Source: a virus
Taxonomy: Duplodnaviria > Heunggongvirae > Uroviricota > Caudoviricetes
Reading direction: 5' to 3' (one strand)
DNA: 17,145 bases
IMG/VR virus record: IMGVR_UViG_2737471824_000005
Location: 1-17,145 of that record
This document shows, one piece after another, positions 1-17,145 of the stretch. The notes beneath the pieces are model-generated. The model made no database searches. It worked only from the letters and a program-made list of their open reading frames with translations, and was not told the DNA's origin. Both the position numbers and the translations under genes were made by a program. How positions within the stretch are numbered: position 1 is the first letter of the stretch; each line of letters starts with the position of its first letter.

Positions 1-573
1 ATGTTTTGCGAAGAAAAAGTAGCTCAAATGGCTGCATACCTACTTCTTAAGCGAGGTGGGCGCATGGCATATCTGAAATTGATGAAGCTGCTCTATCTGT
101 CTAACCGCAAGTCGATTTTGAAGCATGGCAGGATGATCGGCGAAGATAGCCTTTACTCTATGAAATTTGGTCCAGTCATGTCGAATACGCTGAACTTGAT
201 TCGTGGTAAGGCTGAAGGTATTGGTGACTACTGGTACAACCTGATAGAGACGAACGGGCATGATGTGTTGTTGCGTTCAGATCCGAGGGAAATGGATGCA
301 GACGAGGTCTTTGATGAGTTGAGCCGTGCAGATATCCGGATTTTAGATGAAATCTATTCTCTGTATGGGCATATGAACCGATTTGATCTCGCAAACATGA
401 CGCATTTAGAAAGCGTTTGTCCAGAGTGGCACAATCCTGGCAATTCTCGTAAGCCTATAGACCTGAAAGAAATGCTGATCAGTGAGGGTAAAAGCGAGGA
501 TGAGGCTAATCGTATAATTGGCAAAATGGAAGAATCTCAGAAACTTAAGGAATTTTCTTTGCAATTATCATGA
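1..573 (+). CDS. Panacea/DUF4065-like protein (SocA/PanA-type putative antitoxin); may be N-terminally cut by window edge
   Basis: ORF starts at base 1; N-terminal signature 'AAYLLLKRGGRMAYLKLMKLLYLSNRKS' resembles the conserved helix pattern of DUF4065/Panacea proteins; stop overlaps next start (ATGA at 570-573). Confidence 0.5.
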   Translation: MFCEEKVAQMAAYLLLKRGGRMAYLKLMKLLYLSNRKSILKHGRMIGEDSLYSMKFGPVMSNTLNLIRGKAEGIGDYWYNLIETNGHDVLLRSDPREMDADEVFDELSRADIRILDEIYSLYGHMNRFDLANMTHLESVCPEWHNPGNSRKPIDLKEMLISEGKSEDEANRIIGKMEESQKLKEFSLQLS

Positions 574-4477: not shown

Positions 4478-5152
4478 TTAGGCCTTTATTATGTATCTTC
4501 TTGGTTTTCCTGAGAAAATCACTGTACCAATTATAGAGCAATTACCGTTAATCTTAATGTAAGGCTCAGGCCAGTTTGGGTTTAATGCTTTGAGATAACG
4601 CTGTGTTCCATCTTCTATCAACCGCTTGAAGGTGGTTTCGCCTGTATCGTGCATCAATGCAATAACGTCGTCACCGTGGCAGGCAGGGACTTCAGGATCA
4701 ACAAAAATCATGTCTCCCGGGCGGTACTCATCAATCATTGAATCACCAATCACCCGCAAGATATAAGTCATTTCGCCACAGGGTACAGGGCAGGGATAAG
4801 TTTCTGCTGTGCTCAAATCAACCTCAGAATAGCCAACTTCTTTCCATGCTCCGGCCTGTACCCATGATATGACAGGGACTAACGTTATTTGTTTGTTAGT
4901 GATTGAAACGTCAGGTTTTTTTGTGATGTTCGTTGTCTGGTGTTCTTGATCAAGCCATCCGACAGGCAGGTCGAAACATTTTTCGATGTGCCGTGCCATG
5001 CTGTCACCGATATTTTTAGTTGCACCATCTCCCATAAACCTGCTGGTCTGGGTTGGCTCGCGATCAATCATGGTGGCAAAGGAAGAATTCCCGCCAACAC
5101 CATCTCTCAGTTTTCTGGCGTTAGACCGCCGGATGTCATGGACTGTTTTCAT
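4478..5152 (-). CDS. cI: CI-type prophage repressor (N-terminal HTH, C-terminal S24 LexA-like autopeptidase)
   Basis: 224 aa; S24 motifs 'VIGDSM' (Ser) and 'FKRL' (Lys); divergent to a Cro-like gene; start 18 nt from an operator palindrome. Confidence 0.8.
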   Translation of the reverse strand: MKTVHDIRRSNARKLRDGVGGNSSFATMIDREPTQTSRFMGDGATKNIGDSMARHIEKCFDLPVGWLDQEHQTTNITKKPDVSITNKQITLVPVISWVQAGAWKEVGYSEVDLSTAETYPCPVPCGEMTYILRVIGDSMIDEYRPGDMIFVDPEVPACHGDDVIALMHDTGETTFKRLIEDGTQRYLKALNPNWPEPYIKINGNCSIIGTVIFSGKPRRYIIKA

Positions 5153-5474: not shown

Positions 5475-6038
5475 ATGAGGCTAACCGTGGGTAAGCATCA
5501 CTGGAAAGTAGAAAAACAGCCTGAGTGGTACGTGAAAGCTGTCAGAAAAACTATCGCGGCGTTGCCGGGGGGTTACGCTGAAGCTGCTGAGTGGCTGGAT
5601 GTAACAGAGAACGCTTTATTCAACCGCCTTCGTGCAGATGGCGATCAGATTTTCCCGCTGGGATGGGCAATGATTTTACAGCGCGCGGCTGGCACTCACT
5701 ACATTGCGGATGCTGTCGCACAGTCTGCTGGTGGGGTGTTTGTATCGCTTCCTGAAATTGAGGAAGTAGAGAACGCCGATATAAACCAGCGCCTGCTGGA
5801 AGTCATCGAACAGATCGGGAGTTACTCAAAGCAGATTCGTTCGGCAATCGAAGATGGGGTAGTGGAGCCACACGAGCAGACAGCAATTAATGATGAGTTG
5901 TATCTGTCAATTTCGAAGCTCCAGGAGCATGCAGCACTGGTCTACAAAATCTTTTGCGCTCCAGAAAAGAGTGACGCCCGCGAGTGTGCAGCTCCGGGCG
6001 TCGTGGCGTTTTGTGTCTGTGGAGAAACTAACGCATGA
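5475..6038 (+). CDS. CII-like / phage regulatory protein (family uncertain)
   Basis: Positioned immediately after cro; alternative GTG start at 5487 has GAGG upstream; stop overlaps next start (ATGA). Confidence 0.4.
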   Translation: MRLTVGKHHWKVEKQPEWYVKAVRKTIAALPGGYAEAAEWLDVTENALFNRLRADGDQIFPLGWAMILQRAAGTHYIADAVAQSAGGVFVSLPEIEEVENADINQRLLEVIEQIGSYSKQIRSAIEDGVVEPHEQTAINDELYLSISKLQEHAALVYKIFCAPEKSDARECAAPGVVAFCVCGETNA

Positions 6039-6871
6039 ACAGTTTAACGGCAAATAACCGTTTGTCGCAACAGCTGGTGGTCAGCGTCGCTGAACACCTG
6101 TTGTTACGGCATGAATGCAGATTACCAAATCACCTGGCTGTAAGTAACCACAGAGAACTTTACCTGACTGTGGGGGGCGAGTTGTGCAGGAACTTAACCG
6201 CTGGTTTCGTGACGGAAGAGGACTTTATGTTCATGTTATTCGTTAGGAGCCAGAAACACAGCGCGTTATCTATCTTCGCAAAGACTACCCGCATGAGTGC
6301 TTTAGTCCTTTGTGGAAATTCAGGCGTGATTTTGTTGAGTGTGAAGGACCACCAGCACATTGATTCTGCCATTCCGGGACGTTACACTGTTCAGGCACCT
6401 TATAAAGCGGGTGCCGGGATTGGCGTCCTGGAATTGATCAAGGCGATATATGACGCGCCAGCGTCTTTTTTATCGTCCGCATTTGCTCACATCAAAGTTA
6501 TGGTGGGCTGGGCGGGGGCATCGAAAGATGCGCCGGTTTCCTTGATCACCGGTTACGCCAACCCCGTTCAGTTCACCACCAGCGAAATTGGCGTTTCCGG
6601 TGGTGGAAGTATTTCACCGATCAAGGAGGCTGCCATCATGGCTACTGTCCCAGCCCTCACTCGTCTGAATGATGAAGACTTACATAAACTCAGTTATGTA
6701 ACAACTGCACTACGTGCTCTGCGCAAGGTAACTCTTTCGGATCCGCAGGCACATCAGGTTCTGGTAGAAACCCTTCTTAACTTGCAAGCTGAACGTATTC
6801 GTCTGGCGGATAAGGCTAATTTTCATATTCACCGTCTCCTGAATATCAGCGGAGGGCATCGTCATGCTTAA
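6035..6871 (+). CDS. hypothetical 278-aa protein; C-terminal part may derive from a tape-measure gene
   Basis: GGAG 9 nt upstream of ATG; coupled to flanking ORFs; segment 'LLNLQAERIRLADKAN' resembles my recollection of an internal lambda H segment (unverified). Confidence 0.4.
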   Translation: MNSLTANNRLSQQLVVSVAEHLLLRHECRLPNHLAVSNHRELYLTVGGELCRNLTAGFVTEEDFMFMLFVRSQKHSALSIFAKTTRMSALVLCGNSGVILLSVKDHQHIDSAIPGRYTVQAPYKAGAGIGVLELIKAIYDAPASFLSSAFAHIKVMVGWAGASKDAPVSLITGYANPVQFTTSEIGVSGGGSISPIKEAAIMATVPALTRLNDEDLHKLSYVTTALRALRKVTLSDPQAHQVLVETLLNLQAERIRLADKANFHIHRLLNISGGHRHA

Positions 6872-9718: not shown

Positions 9719-10705
9719 ATGGGTAAAGGCAGCAGTAAGGGGCATACCCCGCGCGAAGCGAAGGACAACCTGAAGTCCACGCAGCTGCTGAGTGTGATCG
9801 ATGCCATCAGCGAAGGGCCGGTTGAAGGTCCGGTGGATGGATTAAAAAGCGTGCTGCTGAACAGTACGCCGGTGCTGGACAGTGATGGGAATACCAACAT
9901 CGCCGGTGTCACGGTGGTGTTCCGGGCCGGTGAGCAGGAGCAGACTCCGCCGGAGGGATTTGAATCCTCCGGCTCCGAGACGGTGTTGGGTACGGAAGTG
10001 AAATACGACACGCCGATCACCCGCGCCATCACGTCGGCAAACATCGACCGACTGCGCTTTACCTTCGGCGTGCAGGCACTGGTGGAAACCACCTCAAAGG
10101 GTGACAGGAATCCGTCGGAAGTCCGTCTGCTGGTTCAGATACAACGTAACGGTGGCTGGGTGACGGAAAAAGACATCACCATTAAGGGCAAAACCACCTC
10201 GCAGTATCTGGCCTCGGTGGTGGTGGGTAGCCTGCCGCCGCGCCCGTTTAATATCCGGATGCGCAGGATGACGCCGGACAGCACCACAGACCAGCTGCAG
10301 AACAAAACGCTCTGGTCGTCATACACCGAAATCATCGATGTGAAACAGTGCTACCCGAACACGGCACTGGTCGGCGTGCAGGTGGACTCGGAGCAGTTCG
10401 GCAGCCAGCAGGTGAGCCGTAATTATCATCTTCGCGGGCGCATTCTGCAGGTGCCGTCGAACTATAACCCGCAGACGCGGCAATACAGCGGTATCTGGGA
10501 CGGAACGTTTAAGCCGGCATACAGCAACAACCCGGCCTGGTGTCTGTGGGATATGCTGACCCACAGCAACACGTCTCTGGCGTGGGGAGCTGGCGTGCAG
10601 TTTAACCCGACCGAATCCGTGGCCATTGATATTGCTTATGAAGGCTCCGGCAGTGGCGACTGGCGCACTGACGGTTTCATCGTGGGTGTCGGTTATAAGT
10701 TCTGA
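9719..10705 (+). CDS. J: truncated tip attachment protein J (first ~283 aa) fused in-frame to the last ~45 codons of lom
   Basis: N-terminus matches lambda gpJ ('MGKGSSKGHTPREAKDNLKSTQLLSVIDAISEGP...') up to '...WCLWDMLTH'; then continues as Lom-like C-terminus 'AWGAGVQFNPTESVAIDIAYEGSGSGDWRTDGFIVGVGYKF'. Confidence 0.8.
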   Translation: MGKGSSKGHTPREAKDNLKSTQLLSVIDAISEGPVEGPVDGLKSVLLNSTPVLDSDGNTNIAGVTVVFRAGEQEQTPPEGFESSGSETVLGTEVKYDTPITRAITSANIDRLRFTFGVQALVETTSKGDRNPSEVRLLVQIQRNGGWVTEKDITIKGKTTSQYLASVVVGSLPPRPFNIRMRRMTPDSTTDQLQNKTLWSSYTEIIDVKQCYPNTALVGVQVDSEQFGSQQVSRNYHLRGRILQVPSNYNPQTRQYSGIWDGTFKPAYSNNPAWCLWDMLTHSNTSLAWGAGVQFNPTESVAIDIAYEGSGSGDWRTDGFIVGVGYKF

Positions 10706-13700: not shown

Positions 13701-14504
13701 CCAGGTATTATGTTCACTGATGGATGGTGGGGGTTGCAGTTCCAGTCGCGTCTGAGTATTCCGTGCTATGAGTGGCTCTACAAAATGGCGGTGAAGGCCG
13801 GAGATACAGCCAAACAAACCGAGCTGAAGGCGGGGATTAAATCCCTCGCGGATGCCGTCATGGTGTCATATAACACCTATGGTGGCGTGGCTCTGGTGGG
13901 GACAGCCACAAACTCAGGAAACAGCAACTCTAACGCGACAGCCATGCGCGTGCTGGCGCTGGCGATTTATATGGGGCTGGATACCGGCGGGACGTACCTT
14001 GCTGCATTCAATGCGCTGGAGACCTTCATCACGAACTCAGCGACATTCATGAAAGCGGAAAACATTATTCTCGATGGCCCGTCGGATTCCACGCTGAAGA
14101 GCATGTACCTGCCGTACATGGTTTACGCCACTAATAACTACCTGCTGGCCTGCAAGCTGCTTAACCGGACACCAAAGTTTGACCTGGTGAATTTTATCCT
14201 GACAGCGTCAAACAGCGCGGGAGGATTCAGTGAGGTGGATTACTGCATCTCTGAAAGCCGACGTGGTGGCGCGAACACCATCGCGTTTGCGTTACTGCCG
14301 CTGTTTCAGTCCGCCAGGCCGTCAGCAATGATTGCCGCAAAATCGCTGTTCGGAATTTTTGAGACGCAGTACGGGCCGAAACCGGGACTACCAAAGCGCT
14401 TCTTTGATTTTGACGGCAGCAGTGCGGCTGGCAGCACGATGTATGACCCGTGCTTTGTGGCGTCAACGCTTGCCGACCTTTGGCTGTCATATGGCTACAA
14501 TTAA
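10770..14504 (+). CDS. stf: side tail fibre protein, chimeric: lambda Stf-like N-terminal ~150 aa plus ~1,100-aa non-Stf distal region
   Basis: ATG at 10770 (track starts at GTG 10764); N-terminus matches lambda/Rac Stf; the Ala/Ser-rich shaft and Gly/His-rich distal repeats of lambda Stf are absent. Confidence 0.8.
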
Positions 14505-14662
14505 TGGAAAATAGAAATCAGGATGCTGCAGATCTGGAAATCGCAACGGAGGAAGAAACCTCGTTGCTGGAAGCCTGGAAAAAGTATCGGGTGTTGCTGA
14601 ACCGTGTTGATACATCAACTGCACCTGATATTGAGTGGCCTGCGGTCCCTGTTATGGAGTAA
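14504..14662 (+). CDS. tfa: tail fibre assembly protein remnant (C-terminal 52 codons of tfa)
   Basis: '[47 protein letters not shown]' matches the conserved Tfa C-terminus; ATG shares a base with the stf stop (TAATG). Confidence 0.6.
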
Positions 14663-14676
14663 TCGTTTTGTGATAT

Positions 14677-14710
14677 GCCGCAGCAACTTGTCATGGCAGG
14701 ATACTGCGGC
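14677..14710 (+). terminator. possible terminator of the tail fibre operon
   Basis: GCCGCAG / CTGCGGC 7-bp stem with a large 20-nt loop, followed by T-rich sequence. Confidence 0.3.
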
Positions 14711-14774
14711 TGATTTGTGAATTTAAATAGTGTGTTTATTGCTTTATATATAAAGGATTTAATGGATTACATAT

Positions 14775-16145
14775 CTATGATATCCCTGAAATGTCCTCTT
14801 CAAGCTCTTTTACTGATTTCGCAATTTTAAATTTAAATTTTCTCTCTATTTCACTATTGCTAAGTTTTTTTTCATTCTCTTTCCCTATCCACATAGAAAC
14901 AATTTCTCGTTTCTGAGATATATGTAGATTGTCAAAGTTAGGTATGTATTTAAAAGTCTCCGCTCTACCCCTGCGGAGTTCATAGAAAGTTTTAATCAAA
15001 GACTTTGGTTTTATTTCTGATGAAAGGCCGAATCGGCGGATAAGATTATTGATCGTATGATTAACAGCTCGAAGTTGAGCTGTTGACGTTATTTGTGAGA
15101 AGTACGATACCCATCCCAATCGTTTACCTTCAAACACACATCCCGTAATTCTAAGATTTAGTTTCCACTGACAATATGCAACAGCTCGTTCTTTATCGCG
15201 CTTATTTTTAGCTTGTAGTAGAGCGTGTCTATATGCAGTAAAAATTTTTGCTAAGGATGACTCAAATCTAAGAATGCTCTCATGTTTTATCAATAATTCT
15301 CGATTTTTTATGTGGTAGCCCAAAAAGTTGAAACTTTCATCCAAGCTGCCTACTTTGGATTTTGAGTTCTCTTCATTTAATGGATGTGGGTTTAAATTTA
15401 ATGATTGAAGCTTATCAATGATATGAGAAGCTATTTTTGTTGCTTGATATTTTGGTGTTAAAATAAGAATGTCATCAACGTATCGCATGTACCATATGTC
15501 ATGCATTTTATTGATTTCATCATCGAAATTAGATAGTGATATTTCAGCTAAAATGTTTGATATCGCTAATCCCTGAGGTACTCCTCTGGTATTATTAGGG
15601 ATACCTTTGCTTCCTGTGGTTCCACTTACAGTAGGCACGATTAATGATGATGTTATTAACTGTCTAATTTCTTTTTTTCTAATTTTATTTTTTATTGCAT
15701 TAATTATCAATTTATGTTCAATTGAAGGATAGAAACTTTTAAGATCTATTTTTGCATATTCAGCATATAGACTGTTGTTTAATGCTTCTTTCAATGAGTC
15801 AATTACTGTATGTGGTAGTTTTAATCTGGACTTAGGATATATTTCCGTAAGGCATTCACAGAGAGCTCTAAGAGTAATTCTGTCCCTAGCAGTTGGTATG
15901 GAAATCTGTCTGGGTGTAGAGTTAGCGCCTTTAGATATTAATTTTTCTTTATATGCTGTAAATTTGTAATTGCCAGAATTAACCTTTTCAAAAATGAAAG
16001 TGATCTCATTTTTTATTGTCAAATCAAGTTTTGATGGGCGAATCCGATCTATGCCAATCGCTCCTGATTCTTTGATTTTTTCAGAGTATACTTTTAGAAG
16101 ATTTTTTTTCGAGAATGACTTTTTAAAAATTCTGCTTGCAGTCAT
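14775..16145 (-). CDS. reverse transcriptase, retron-like or UG/Abi (DRT) type
   Basis: RT motifs: 'IGIDRIRPS', 'IDLKSFYPSI' (motif A), 'RGVPQGLAISNILAEISL' (motif B), 'YVDD' at 15471-15482 (motif C), 'FLGY', and thumb-like 'RITG' at 15141-15152; track start 16151 is TTG, first ATG is 16145; overlaps the upstream membrane gene; AT-rich. Confidence 0.9.
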   Translation of the reverse strand: MTASRIFKKSFSKKNLLKVYSEKIKESGAIGIDRIRPSKLDLTIKNEITFIFEKVNSGNYKFTAYKEKLISKGANSTPRQISIPTARDRITLRALCECLTEIYPKSRLKLPHTVIDSLKEALNNSLYAEYAKIDLKSFYPSIEHKLIINAIKNKIRKKEIRQLITSSLIVPTVSGTTGSKGIPNNTRGVPQGLAISNILAEISLSNFDDEINKMHDIWYMRYVDDILILTPKYQATKIASHIIDKLQSLNLNPHPLNEENSKSKVGSLDESFNFLGYHIKNRELLIKHESILRFESSLAKIFTAYRHALLQAKNKRDKERAVAYCQWKLNLRITGCVFEGKRLGWVSYFSQITSTAQLRAVNHTINNLIRRFGLSSEIKPKSLIKTFYELRRGRAETFKYIPNFDNLHISQKREIVSMWIGKENEKKLSNSEIERKFKFKIAKSVKELEEDISGIS

Positions 16146-16674
16146 AGTCAATCCAAAGATATATTAATGGGAGTATATAAAGTGCGGCAGTAATAAATAT
16201 TCGAAGTAATATCCATAAAATAACAATTATTTTTTCTTTTTGTGTGGGGATCCTCGTCTTAAGTCCAACTTGAGTTACCCTTGAAATTTTATCATCTATG
16301 TCACGGTGATTCTCAACCTCATTGAGCAAATTAAAATATTTTTCTTTCTGTTCAAGAGATAACTGTTGACTGGTGGTAATGTCAAAATAGAGTCGCTGTA
16401 GTGCAATATAATTCCTTCTCATGGCTATTGCTCGACCACGAAAATCTAGGTTAGATACGATCAGAGAAATACCCAGTAGAGCCACTGAAAGTATCGCCGC
16501 AACGACATCTGTATTATCTCCTAGAACCTTTGGAAATCGCAACGTTACAATTGAAAGTACCGCACTCAATATAGCATACCAAACGAGGATAAATTGAGAG
16601 TGTTTTTCAAGCCATTCTAGTCGATGGTGCGCTTGGATACGTGCTTTATATGTAAACCAAATATTGTCATGCAT
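16123..16674 (-). CDS. 3-TM membrane protein, candidate effector of the RT system
   Basis: 183 aa; hydrophobic helices 'FILVWYAILSAVLSIVTL', 'VVAAILSVALLGISLIVS' and 'IIVILWILLRIFITAALYILPLIYLWI'; AAGGA SD; 3' end overlaps the RT start by 23 nt. Confidence 0.65.
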   Translation of the reverse strand: MHDNIWFTYKARIQAHHRLEWLEKHSQFILVWYAILSAVLSIVTLRFPKVLGDNTDVVAAILSVALLGISLIVSNLDFRGRAIAMRRNYIALQRLYFDITTSQQLSLEQKEKYFNLLNEVENHRDIDDKISRVTQVGLKTRIPTQKEKIIVILWILLRIFITAALYILPLIYLWIDYDCKQNF

Positions 16675-16694
16675 AAAAGATCCTTTTTAAAAGC

Positions 16695-16829
16695 GGAAGG
16701 GGCAGGATATATTGGAACCGTTGAACATCCTGCCCGGCAGGATCAGTGAGCATAAGCTCAACAGTAAAATATTACTGTTCATTATCAGAGCCGCCCTTGC
16801 ATGCGCAAGAGGAAAAACCTGCCCCATCC
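16695..16829 (-). ncRNA. candidate structured ncRNA (retron msr-msd-like) in the leader of the RT operon
   Basis: 12-nt inverted repeats (11/12 match) at 16818-16829 and 16695-16706 flank hairpins at 16796-16809, 16760-16779 and 16747-16760, and a GGCAGGAT/ATCCTGCC palindrome at 16727-16743. Confidence 0.35.
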
Positions 16830-16835
16830 CTTTGA

Positions 16836-16865
16836 ATTATTACAATTTAATGATCTTAAAGTCAA
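16836..16865 (-). promoter_or_regulatory. putative sigma70 promoter of the RT cassette
   Basis: On - strand: TTGACT (16860-16865), then TG-extended -10 (TAATAA/AATAAT, 16836-16844); predicted start falls at the first base of the upstream inverted repeat. Confidence 0.4.
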
Positions 16866-16896
16866 TACAAGTGAATGGTGTCCAGAGATGATGAAC

Positions 16897-17145
16897 TTAA
16901 TGAACAAACCACTCGTCAGCAGACTCCCAGGTATCTTTCAGAGTCTCCTGAACAAAAGTTTTAGCTGAATCTTTATCAGCGGTGCGCGTAACAGAAAGGC
17001 CATCGTTGCTGGTGGCTTTTACGATCACTTCTACATCGTCATAACGTTTACTGATGCGTCGGGTTAATTCTTCCTTTAACGCATCCACAGCACCGGTTGG
17101 CATTTTAGTCATTTTTTCTTTGGCTATGCAGATTTCAATACGCAT
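16897..17145 (-). CDS. dinI: DinI-family protein
   Basis: 82 aa, '[10 protein letters not shown]...[11 protein letters not shown]' matches the DinI termini as recalled; start codon is the last triplet of the window. Confidence 0.85.

Follow-up and report, generated by a model that had tools for sequence, protein, structure and literature searches.

The leader of a SLATT-reverse transcriptase operon in a decayed Escherichia coli prophage is very probably the non-coding RNA of an Eco3DRT10-type DRT10 (UG17) anti-phage system

The leader of the effector and reverse transcriptase (RT) genes in the window, that is, the whole stretch of 17,145 nucleotides that was analysed, was identified with high confidence as the non-coding RNA (ncRNA) of an Eco3DRT10-type DRT10 (UG17) anti-phage system; the system belongs to a lambdoid prophage, now decayed, that is located at dusA in Escherichia coli. 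The original prediction had regarded this region as the template or guide RNA of the RT system, and the role of template was supported by the UG17 class of the RT, a covarying RNA, a loop with an A-B-A' pattern and the agreement with the published numbering. The structured leader is real and functional, and it is already known: UG17 was characterised under the name DRT10 by Tang et al. 2025 (PMC12632851), Sanchez-Nieto et al. 2026 (10.64898/2026.04.29.721553) and Ramirez et al. 2026 (10.64898/2026.06.29.735271). In Eco3DRT10 a tandem-repeat cDNA is made in an RT-dependent manner, and protection against phage depends on each of the three parts of the system (PMC12632851; 10.64898/2026.06.29.735271). 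Since Rfam 15 gave no family-level match over the ncRNA, either in 14500-17145 at E-values up to 10 or in the whole window at gathering thresholds, the identification rests on a covariance model of our own and on these preprints; the DRT10 RNA appears to be absent from Rfam 15. Current interest in DRT10 stems from its being a telomerase-like enzyme of bacteria that is protein-primed and has an RNA with a template, an alignment segment and a boundary stem. The window brings no new kind of element, and the DRT10 RNA was recognisable in it from the raw sequence.

The genes and signals of the cassette are the following.

17145-16897, minus strand: DinI-family gene (Pfam DinI), which precedes the ncRNA promoter.
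16836-16865, minus strand: sigma-70 promoter of the ncRNA, with -35 TTGACT at 16865-16860, an 18-nt spacer, TG at 16844-16843 and -10 AATAAT at 16841-16836.
16693-16829, minus strand: DRT10 (UG17) ncRNA of 137 nt, delimited by the fold, by covariance model R1 and by the published length and numbering of Eco3DRT10.
16685-16681, minus strand: Shine-Dalgarno AAGGA of the effector, read from the sequence.
16123-16674, minus strand: SLATT_5 two-transmembrane effector of 183 aa, ATG at 16674 (PADLOC, Pfam and NCBIfam models).
14775-16145, minus strand: UG17/DRT10 RT of 456 aa, ATG at 16145, with YVDD at residues 222-225 and the C-terminal S456 (PADLOC RT_UG17).

The RT matched the PADLOC model RT_UG17 over its full length with an E-value of 1.1e-158, and the runner-up was Drt3a with 130 bits. 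When it was compared with part of the Eco3DRT10 RT (OKX54664), 389 of the 397 residues compared were identical (98%). Residues S456, R371, K385, Y388 and the YVDD motif (Y222-V223-D224-D225) were invariant in an alignment of 26 sequences with 59-83% identity. An identical ORF of 456 aa is annotated in RefSeq, and the mechanical ORF, which starts at TTG 16151 and has 458 aa, is two residues longer than the ATG ORF. The GenBank record of the Eco3DRT10 RT has two spurious N-terminal residues, its S458 being the true S456 (Tang et al. 2025, PMC12632851), and the two-residue extension of the mechanical ORF in the window is the same misannotation. No DRT10 entry was found in a PDB sequence search with the RT, and the best match was a group II intron RT (E 4e-14). 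The SLATT ORF was recognised by PADLOC RTasSLATT (E 1.5e-56), Pfam SLATT_5 (E 1.3e-28, 100.1 bits) and NCBIfam SLATT_5 (136.2 bits). It was 97% identical to the SLATT of Eco3DRT10 (178/183), and the RT gene overlaps it by 23 nt.

The promoter that had been proposed on the minus strand, TTGACT with a TG-extended -10, was present; it agreed with the consensus at 10 of 12 positions and was the only TG-extended site in 14400-17145. The +1 predicted from it lies at about 16829-16830. The proposed transcription start at the terminal repeat also held, for with +1 at 16829 both the 137-nt length and the functional nucleotides of Eco3DRT10 keep their published numbers (G44, G86, G104, U105-U106, C107, G111, C116, A117 and A120-U123), RNA position n being window coordinate 16830 - n. 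Furthermore, each of the 25 homologous loci that were listed has a hexamer resembling a -10, in most cases TG-extended, which ends 6-8 nt 5' of the start of the covariance-model match or of the first paired base. The ends given here for the ncRNA are putative, having been transferred by analogy from RIP-seq of the sister allele Eco3DRT10. The 3' end stands 18 nt from the start codon of SLATT, which lies about 15-30 nt 3' of the RNA in the homologous loci, and no second promoter or terminator was found between the ncRNA and SLATT in a promoter and sequence scan. Because this gap is so short and no such signal was detected in it, SLATT and the RT are probably translated from read-through of the transcript that starts at the ncRNA promoter, and leader of the operon is therefore a fair name for the ncRNA region.

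The minimum free energy (MFE) fold of the 137-nt RNA consisted of a GC-rich basal stem (SL1) enclosing SL2, loop A, SL3, SL4, SL5 and loop B, with internal stems of 4-8 bp. Its parts are as follows.

16818-16829, minus strand: 5' strand of SL1, the a1 of the original prediction (RNA 1-12; helix 1).
16794-16811, minus strand: SL2, a CCUCUUG/CAAGGG stem (RNA 19-36; fold and covariation).
16780-16793, minus strand: loop A, CGGCUCUGAUAAUG, which contains G44 (RNA 37-50; homologue alignment).
16760-16779, minus strand: SL3, AACAGUAA/UUACUGUU (RNA 51-70; helix 3; repeat search, compensatory change in 7 of 8 pairs).
16748-16759, minus strand: SL4, GAGC/GCUC (RNA 71-82; helix 4; compensatory change in 4 of 4 pairs).
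16727-16743, minus strand: SL5, AUCCUGC/GCAGGAU, the template-boundary stem (RNA 87-103; helix 5).
16707-16726, minus strand: loop B, the template loop (RNA 104-123), with G104, the linker U105-U106, the template, A' and the linker A120-U123.
16715-16723, minus strand: predicted template A-B, CAAC-GGUUC (RNA 107-115), homologous to the published CAAU-GAUUC.
16711-16714, minus strand: alignment segment A', CAAU (RNA 116-119), which matches the published A'.
16695-16706, minus strand: 3' strand of SL1, formerly a2 (RNA 124-135; repeat search and covariation).

The terminal repeat of 12 nt, said to have an 11/12 partner about 110 nt further on, was confirmed at 16695-16706 and 16818-16829, with 11 of 12 positions complementary (92%) and the arms 111 nt apart. 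This repeat was not significant as sole evidence, since an inverted 12-mer with at least 11 matches was found in 7.7% of the dinucleotide-preserving shuffles (n = 300) of the 251-nt region 16650-16900. The AACAGTAA/TTACTGTT hairpin was confirmed by the repeat search. Three internal hairpins had been counted, and four were found, the fourth (SL5, flanked by G86 and G104 as in the published structure) being built from two octamer copies. The MFE of the 137-mer (16829-16693) was -57.2 kcal/mol (z = -4.6), and none of 200 shuffles was equally stable; folding of the leader, which had been suggested as a check, gave -59 kcal/mol for 16686-16835 (z = -4.9).

For the comparison with other loci, covariance model R1 was built from six E. 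coli alleles with a structure made of the basal stem and four hairpins, and it was searched with filters off. R1 scored 178 bits at the window RNA, and its scores in the gammaproteobacterial homologues were all within 55-141 bits. Each of the 13 gammaproteobacterial genome loci (58-70% RT identity) gave a full-length match, on the coding strand and just 5' of SLATT. All of the 24 viral-contig loci retaining upstream DNA also had a match, always 5' of SLATT and on the same strand. No match of R1 was detected in seven alphaproteobacterial UG17 loci (31-34% RT identity), which agrees with the published finding that covariance models work only within subtypes, and these seven were left aside.

The covariation alignment, fitted to R1, comprised 27 sequences with 26 distinct rows. 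Standard pairs were observed in 96.5% of its cells, compared with 47-56% when the partners were slid by 1-3 columns. Compensatory change was found in 26 of the 37 base pairs among the 26 distinct homologues, with some in each of the five helices, and 0 of 500 shuffles reached any of the five covariation measures. In SL1 both partners had changed in 9 of 11 pairs, with 96.9% of the cells paired, and in SL2 three pairs had a compensatory change and 97.8% of the cells were paired. Additionally, a model-free control (MAFFT and RNAalifold) recovered SL1, SL2, SL3 and SL5 with 14 compensatory pairs. The alternative to SL4 given by RNAalifold had zero compensatory changes, compared with those in all four pairs of SL4, and SL4 was kept. 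Compensatory mutants of SL1 restore the accumulation of the RNA in the UG17-A system (Sanchez-Nieto et al. 2026, bioRxiv 10.64898/2026.04.29.721553). The frequency with which shuffled sequence equals the terminal repeat would suit a chance, palindrome-rich intergenic spacer without any function of its own. Nevertheless, the z scores of about -4.6 to -4.9 and the full-length R1 matches, which keep their position in homologues with an RT identity as low as 58%, argue against such a spacer, and the compensatory changes in all five helices refute it, so this explanation deserves next to no credence.

A small helix of the MFE fold between loop A and the template (38-39/115-116 and 42-44/110-112) was rejected; it consisted mostly of invariant bases, 393 of 500 shuffles were as good, and it clashes with the published single-stranded loops. 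Loop A was nearly invariant among the homologues, and in Eco3DRT10 it is a second RT-binding loop that yields a short abortive cDNA (Ramirez et al. 2026, bioRxiv 10.64898/2026.06.29.735271). The highest conservation of primary sequence in the RNA family, above that of the template, was observed in the 3' arm of SL2 with loop A (AGGGCGGYUCUGAUAA; window 16780-16799, minus strand) and in the junction of SL5 and loop B (GAUCC...GGGAUGUUCAA). Both stretches fit the published role of these places as symmetric RT-binding sites.

The RNA had been given the tentative label of a retron ncRNA, that is, an msr-msd RNA with terminal repeats a1/a2 in which a branching G primes and the msd stem is copied to multicopy single-stranded DNA. 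Like the retron RNA, the leader lies 5' of an effector-RT pair, has hairpins enclosed by a terminal inverted repeat and is predicted to be reverse-transcribed, although the repeat is not a retron-specific feature, and several database records label homologous RTs as retron-type reverse transcriptase. Nevertheless, the RT scored 526.6 bits with RT_UG17 and 58.4 bits with NCBIfam retron_St85_RT (cut-off 235), which was the sole retron model that registered, and there was none among the best 25 PADLOC matches. The published RT tree also places the retron RTs in a clade apart from the UG RTs. The long msd hairpin was absent from the RNA, whose largest internal stem has 8 bp and whose conserved template is a single-stranded stretch of 9 nt within a loop. 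Rfam holds a retron msr family. The scan for retron ncRNA that had been advised, carried out with Rfam 15 over 14500-17145 at E-values up to 10, gave no msr match, and the only match over the RNA was a spurious one of 15 bits to MEG8_1. Moreover, the 98%-identical RT of Eco3DRT10 uses its own S456 as primer and copies a 9-nt loop template into tandem repeats (Tang et al. 2025, PMC12632851), and DRT10 has neither the msd hairpin nor the branching-G priming nor the single discrete msDNA of retrons. The retron label was dropped as extremely unlikely, and the RNA is referred to below as a DRT10 ncRNA.

Competing hairpins had also been proposed for the leader. The octamer GGCAGGAT occurs twice on the plus strand (16701-16708 and 16736-16743) and its complement ATCCTGCC(C) at 16727-16735. 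In the swapped fold, RNA 7-12 pairs with 89-94 and 95-103 with 122-130. The alternative pairings were indeed present in the window RNA, with an enforced energy of -53.9 compared with the MFE of -57.2 kcal/mol and a share of about 2% of the ensemble, but they were neither conserved nor accompanied by covariation. Three E. coli alleles were tested for the share of the swapped fold, which was 2-12% in two of them and about 0.1% in the other one (L005), and some Pseudomonas RNAs had a different competition, which involved SL5 only. The octamer-based pairing was rejected as a feature of the family; it arises incidentally from a sequence that two GC-rich stems have in common.

These pairings bear on the possibility that the leader is chiefly cis-regulatory, the copies of GGCAGGAT and ATCCTGCC switching between two folds that control the termination or the translation of SLATT-RT. 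The swapped fold lies only 3.3 kcal/mol above the MFE and reaches about 12% of the ensemble in the Eco3-type allele, and both the proximity of the RNA end to the ATG and the failure to find a separate SLATT promoter would be compatible with such control. Nevertheless, the 76% pairing of the swapped pairs was equalled in 61 of 500 shuffles, with three double-change pairs, and the predicted share of this fold was about zero in the closest relatives from other genera. Furthermore, Eco3DRT10 keeps its defence after inversion of SL5, and SL2 and SL5 are interchangeable (Ramirez et al. 2026, 10.64898/2026.06.29.735271), while the RNA of the UG17-A system functions in trans (Sanchez-Nieto et al. 2026, bioRxiv 10.64898/2026.04.29.721553). 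A mainly cis-regulatory leader was judged very unlikely, and the region was interpreted as the template RNA of DRT10.

Loop B carried the A-B-A' pattern CAAC-GGUUC-CAAU at RNA 107-119. The comparison with the Eco3DRT10 RNA was made through its published 9-nt motif, A' sequence and nucleotide numbering, and within these parts the window had CAACGGUUC followed by CAAU where Eco3DRT10 has CAAUGAUUC followed by CAAU, the two differing by U110C and A112G. On the basis of these substitutions, and by analogy with the sister allele, the cDNA of the window allele is predicted to be (GAACCGTTG)n, replacing the (GAATCATTG)n of Eco3DRT10. The ETEC4067 allele (L003), which carries the published CAAUGAUUC followed by CAAU, differed from the window RNA by three substitutions; two were in the template and the third was C25 against U25 in SL2. 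A (U)CAA...(U)CAA repeat with a period of 9-11 was observed at the place of the template in 24 of the 26 distinct homologues. The loop base at which it begins is the third or the fourth, and the sequence of B, which separates the two copies, varied among the homologues; L019 and L012 were without a clean repeat. This pattern, a fixed (U)CAA pair and a variable B, is the published A-B-A' rule.

For the realignment of the window cDNA end (...CGTTG) we infer the pairs G:C116, T:A117 and T:A118 and a dG.rU119 wobble at the fourth A/A' position, where Eco3DRT10 has dA.rU; this position is dispensable in Eco3DRT10 (Tang et al. 2025, PMC12632851). A112G also makes a second direct repeat, GUUC (104-107)/GUUC (112-115), with a period of 8. 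An 8-nt register on it, which would give (CGTTGAAC)n, is unlikely because it needs the copying of G104-U106, barred by the published C107 boundary and by the contact of G104 with R371. A broader scenario was considered improbable, namely that the template polymorphism is adaptive, with GAACCGTTG altering sensing or degradation, that the GUUC repeat gives a mixed 8/9-nt register, and that the alternative fold in E. coli tunes the RNA between template and mRNA leader.

The mechanism proposed for the window system is taken from Eco3DRT10, whose RT is 98% identical. Two RT monomers would act on one RNA, and the monomer at loop B would prime DNA from the hydroxyl of the C-terminal Ser456, copying from C115 to C107. 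The SL5 anchor, with R371 contacting G104, would halt copying, and the 3' end of the cDNA would then re-anneal on A' and the cycle would restart as in telomerase. The expected product would be a kilobase-long single-stranded tandem-repeat DNA, and a build-up of this DNA in infected cells is believed to switch on the membrane effector, SLATT. The threshold for activation is set by SbcB together with an SSB-like protein of the phage (PMC12632851; 10.64898/2026.04.29.721553; 10.64898/2026.06.29.735271).

Eco3DRT10 (PMC12632851; 10.64898/2026.06.29.735271) was the known system closest in its traits. It has in common with the window an E. coli prophage with the order DinI, ncRNA, SLATT and RT, a 137-nt RNA with five stem-loops, loop A, 5' and 3' linkers and the G86/G104 pair, the A' CAAU, the 9-nt period, and an RT 98% and a SLATT 97% identical. 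It differs in the two template bases, with GAATCATTG where GAACCGTTG is predicted and without the G.U wobble at the fourth A/A' position. The UG17-A DRT10 of Escherichia sp. E3659 (10.64898/2026.04.29.721553) has the same ncRNA-SLATT-RT order, a tandem-repeat cDNA, a basal stem essential for the stability of the RNA and a loop template between short direct repeats. However, it belongs to another RT/ncRNA lineage, with a 143-nt RNA of six stem-loops, an ACU...ACU template and a 7-nt AGTAATA repeat.

DRT9 (UG28) is also a class 2 UG RT with an upstream RNA made of a basal stem and small stem-loops, and it is protein-primed on a loop template; according to the authors, the RNA structures of DRT9 and DRT10 are similar (Tang et al. 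2025, PMC12632851). DRT9 differs in its conserved poly-U template, which gives poly-dA homopolymers, in its priming from tyrosine and in having no SLATT partner. Telomerase RNA is alike in its template and alignment segments, its 5' boundary stem-loop and its repeat-addition processivity, and elements of this kind were found in the window RNA (A-B at 107-115, A' at 116-119 and SL5 at 87-103), the analogy being one of mechanism. Telomerase extends chromosome ends, whereas DRT10 is protein-primed with two RTs per RNA, and beyond this functional analogy a kinship of the RTs is only proposed.

The cassette was found at an identity of at least 95% in 188 of 5,426 complete E. coli genomes, in all cases on the chromosome. 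A 35-nt loop B probe split these genomes into 154 with the window template and 34 with the Eco3DRT10 template, and no RefSeq feature was annotated under the probe match in either set (154 + 34 genomes). In E. coli the window allele is the major one, and laboratory work has been done on the minor one. With its two-base change in the template, the major allele offers a simple natural way to test the published rule, which leaves the sequence of the repeat free and fixes the A/A' homology and the spacing. Since the relatives in other genera (77-83% RT identity) carry a CAACGGUUC or CAACGAUUC template, the window form may be the older one. The window cassette was 100% identical to those of E. coli O25b:H4 and two other strains, in which the order was dusA, integrase, DinI, ncRNA, SLATT, RT and prophage tail genes. 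In NZ_CP025851.1 (E. coli 510016; L014/H14) an IS1A splits SLATT and leaves the RNA and the RT intact, a natural effector knockout.

Several observations were made on the rest of the prophage. The ORF 9719-10705 (plus strand) fuses a GpJ FNIII-A domain to an Ail/Lom C-terminus, which resembles the scar of a deletion. The tail-fibre assembly ORF 14450-14662 (plus strand) has lost all but the last third of Caudo_TAP, and a distance of only about 1 kb separates the early regulatory genes from the tail genes M, L, K and I. It follows from these features that the DRT10 prophage is heavily decayed, unlike the copy in NZ_CP015085. A partial match to the Rfam sRNA IS009 was obtained at 14500-14619 (plus strand) with 98.8 bits, below the gathering threshold of 117 and cut at the 5' end of the searched stretch; this IS009-like match corresponds to the end of the tail-fibre gene and the convergent gap before the stop codon of the RT. 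Two RNAs were detected at Rfam gathering level on the plus strand inside the Ash-family ORF 6035-6871, the Hfq-binding sRNA isrK (6395-6471, 64 bits) and the C4 antisense RNA (6496-6583, 82 bits), and near them are the genes of an S24 repressor resembling CI (4478-5152, minus strand) and of a CII-like protein (5475-6038). This cluster is an immunity and antirepressor control region of the prophage. At the start of the window, the ORF 1-573 (plus strand) has a SocA/Panacea antitoxin domain (E 1.8e-18) and is overlapped by an ORF of 139 aa (570-989); the two may be a toxin-antitoxin or a second defence module of the prophage remnant.
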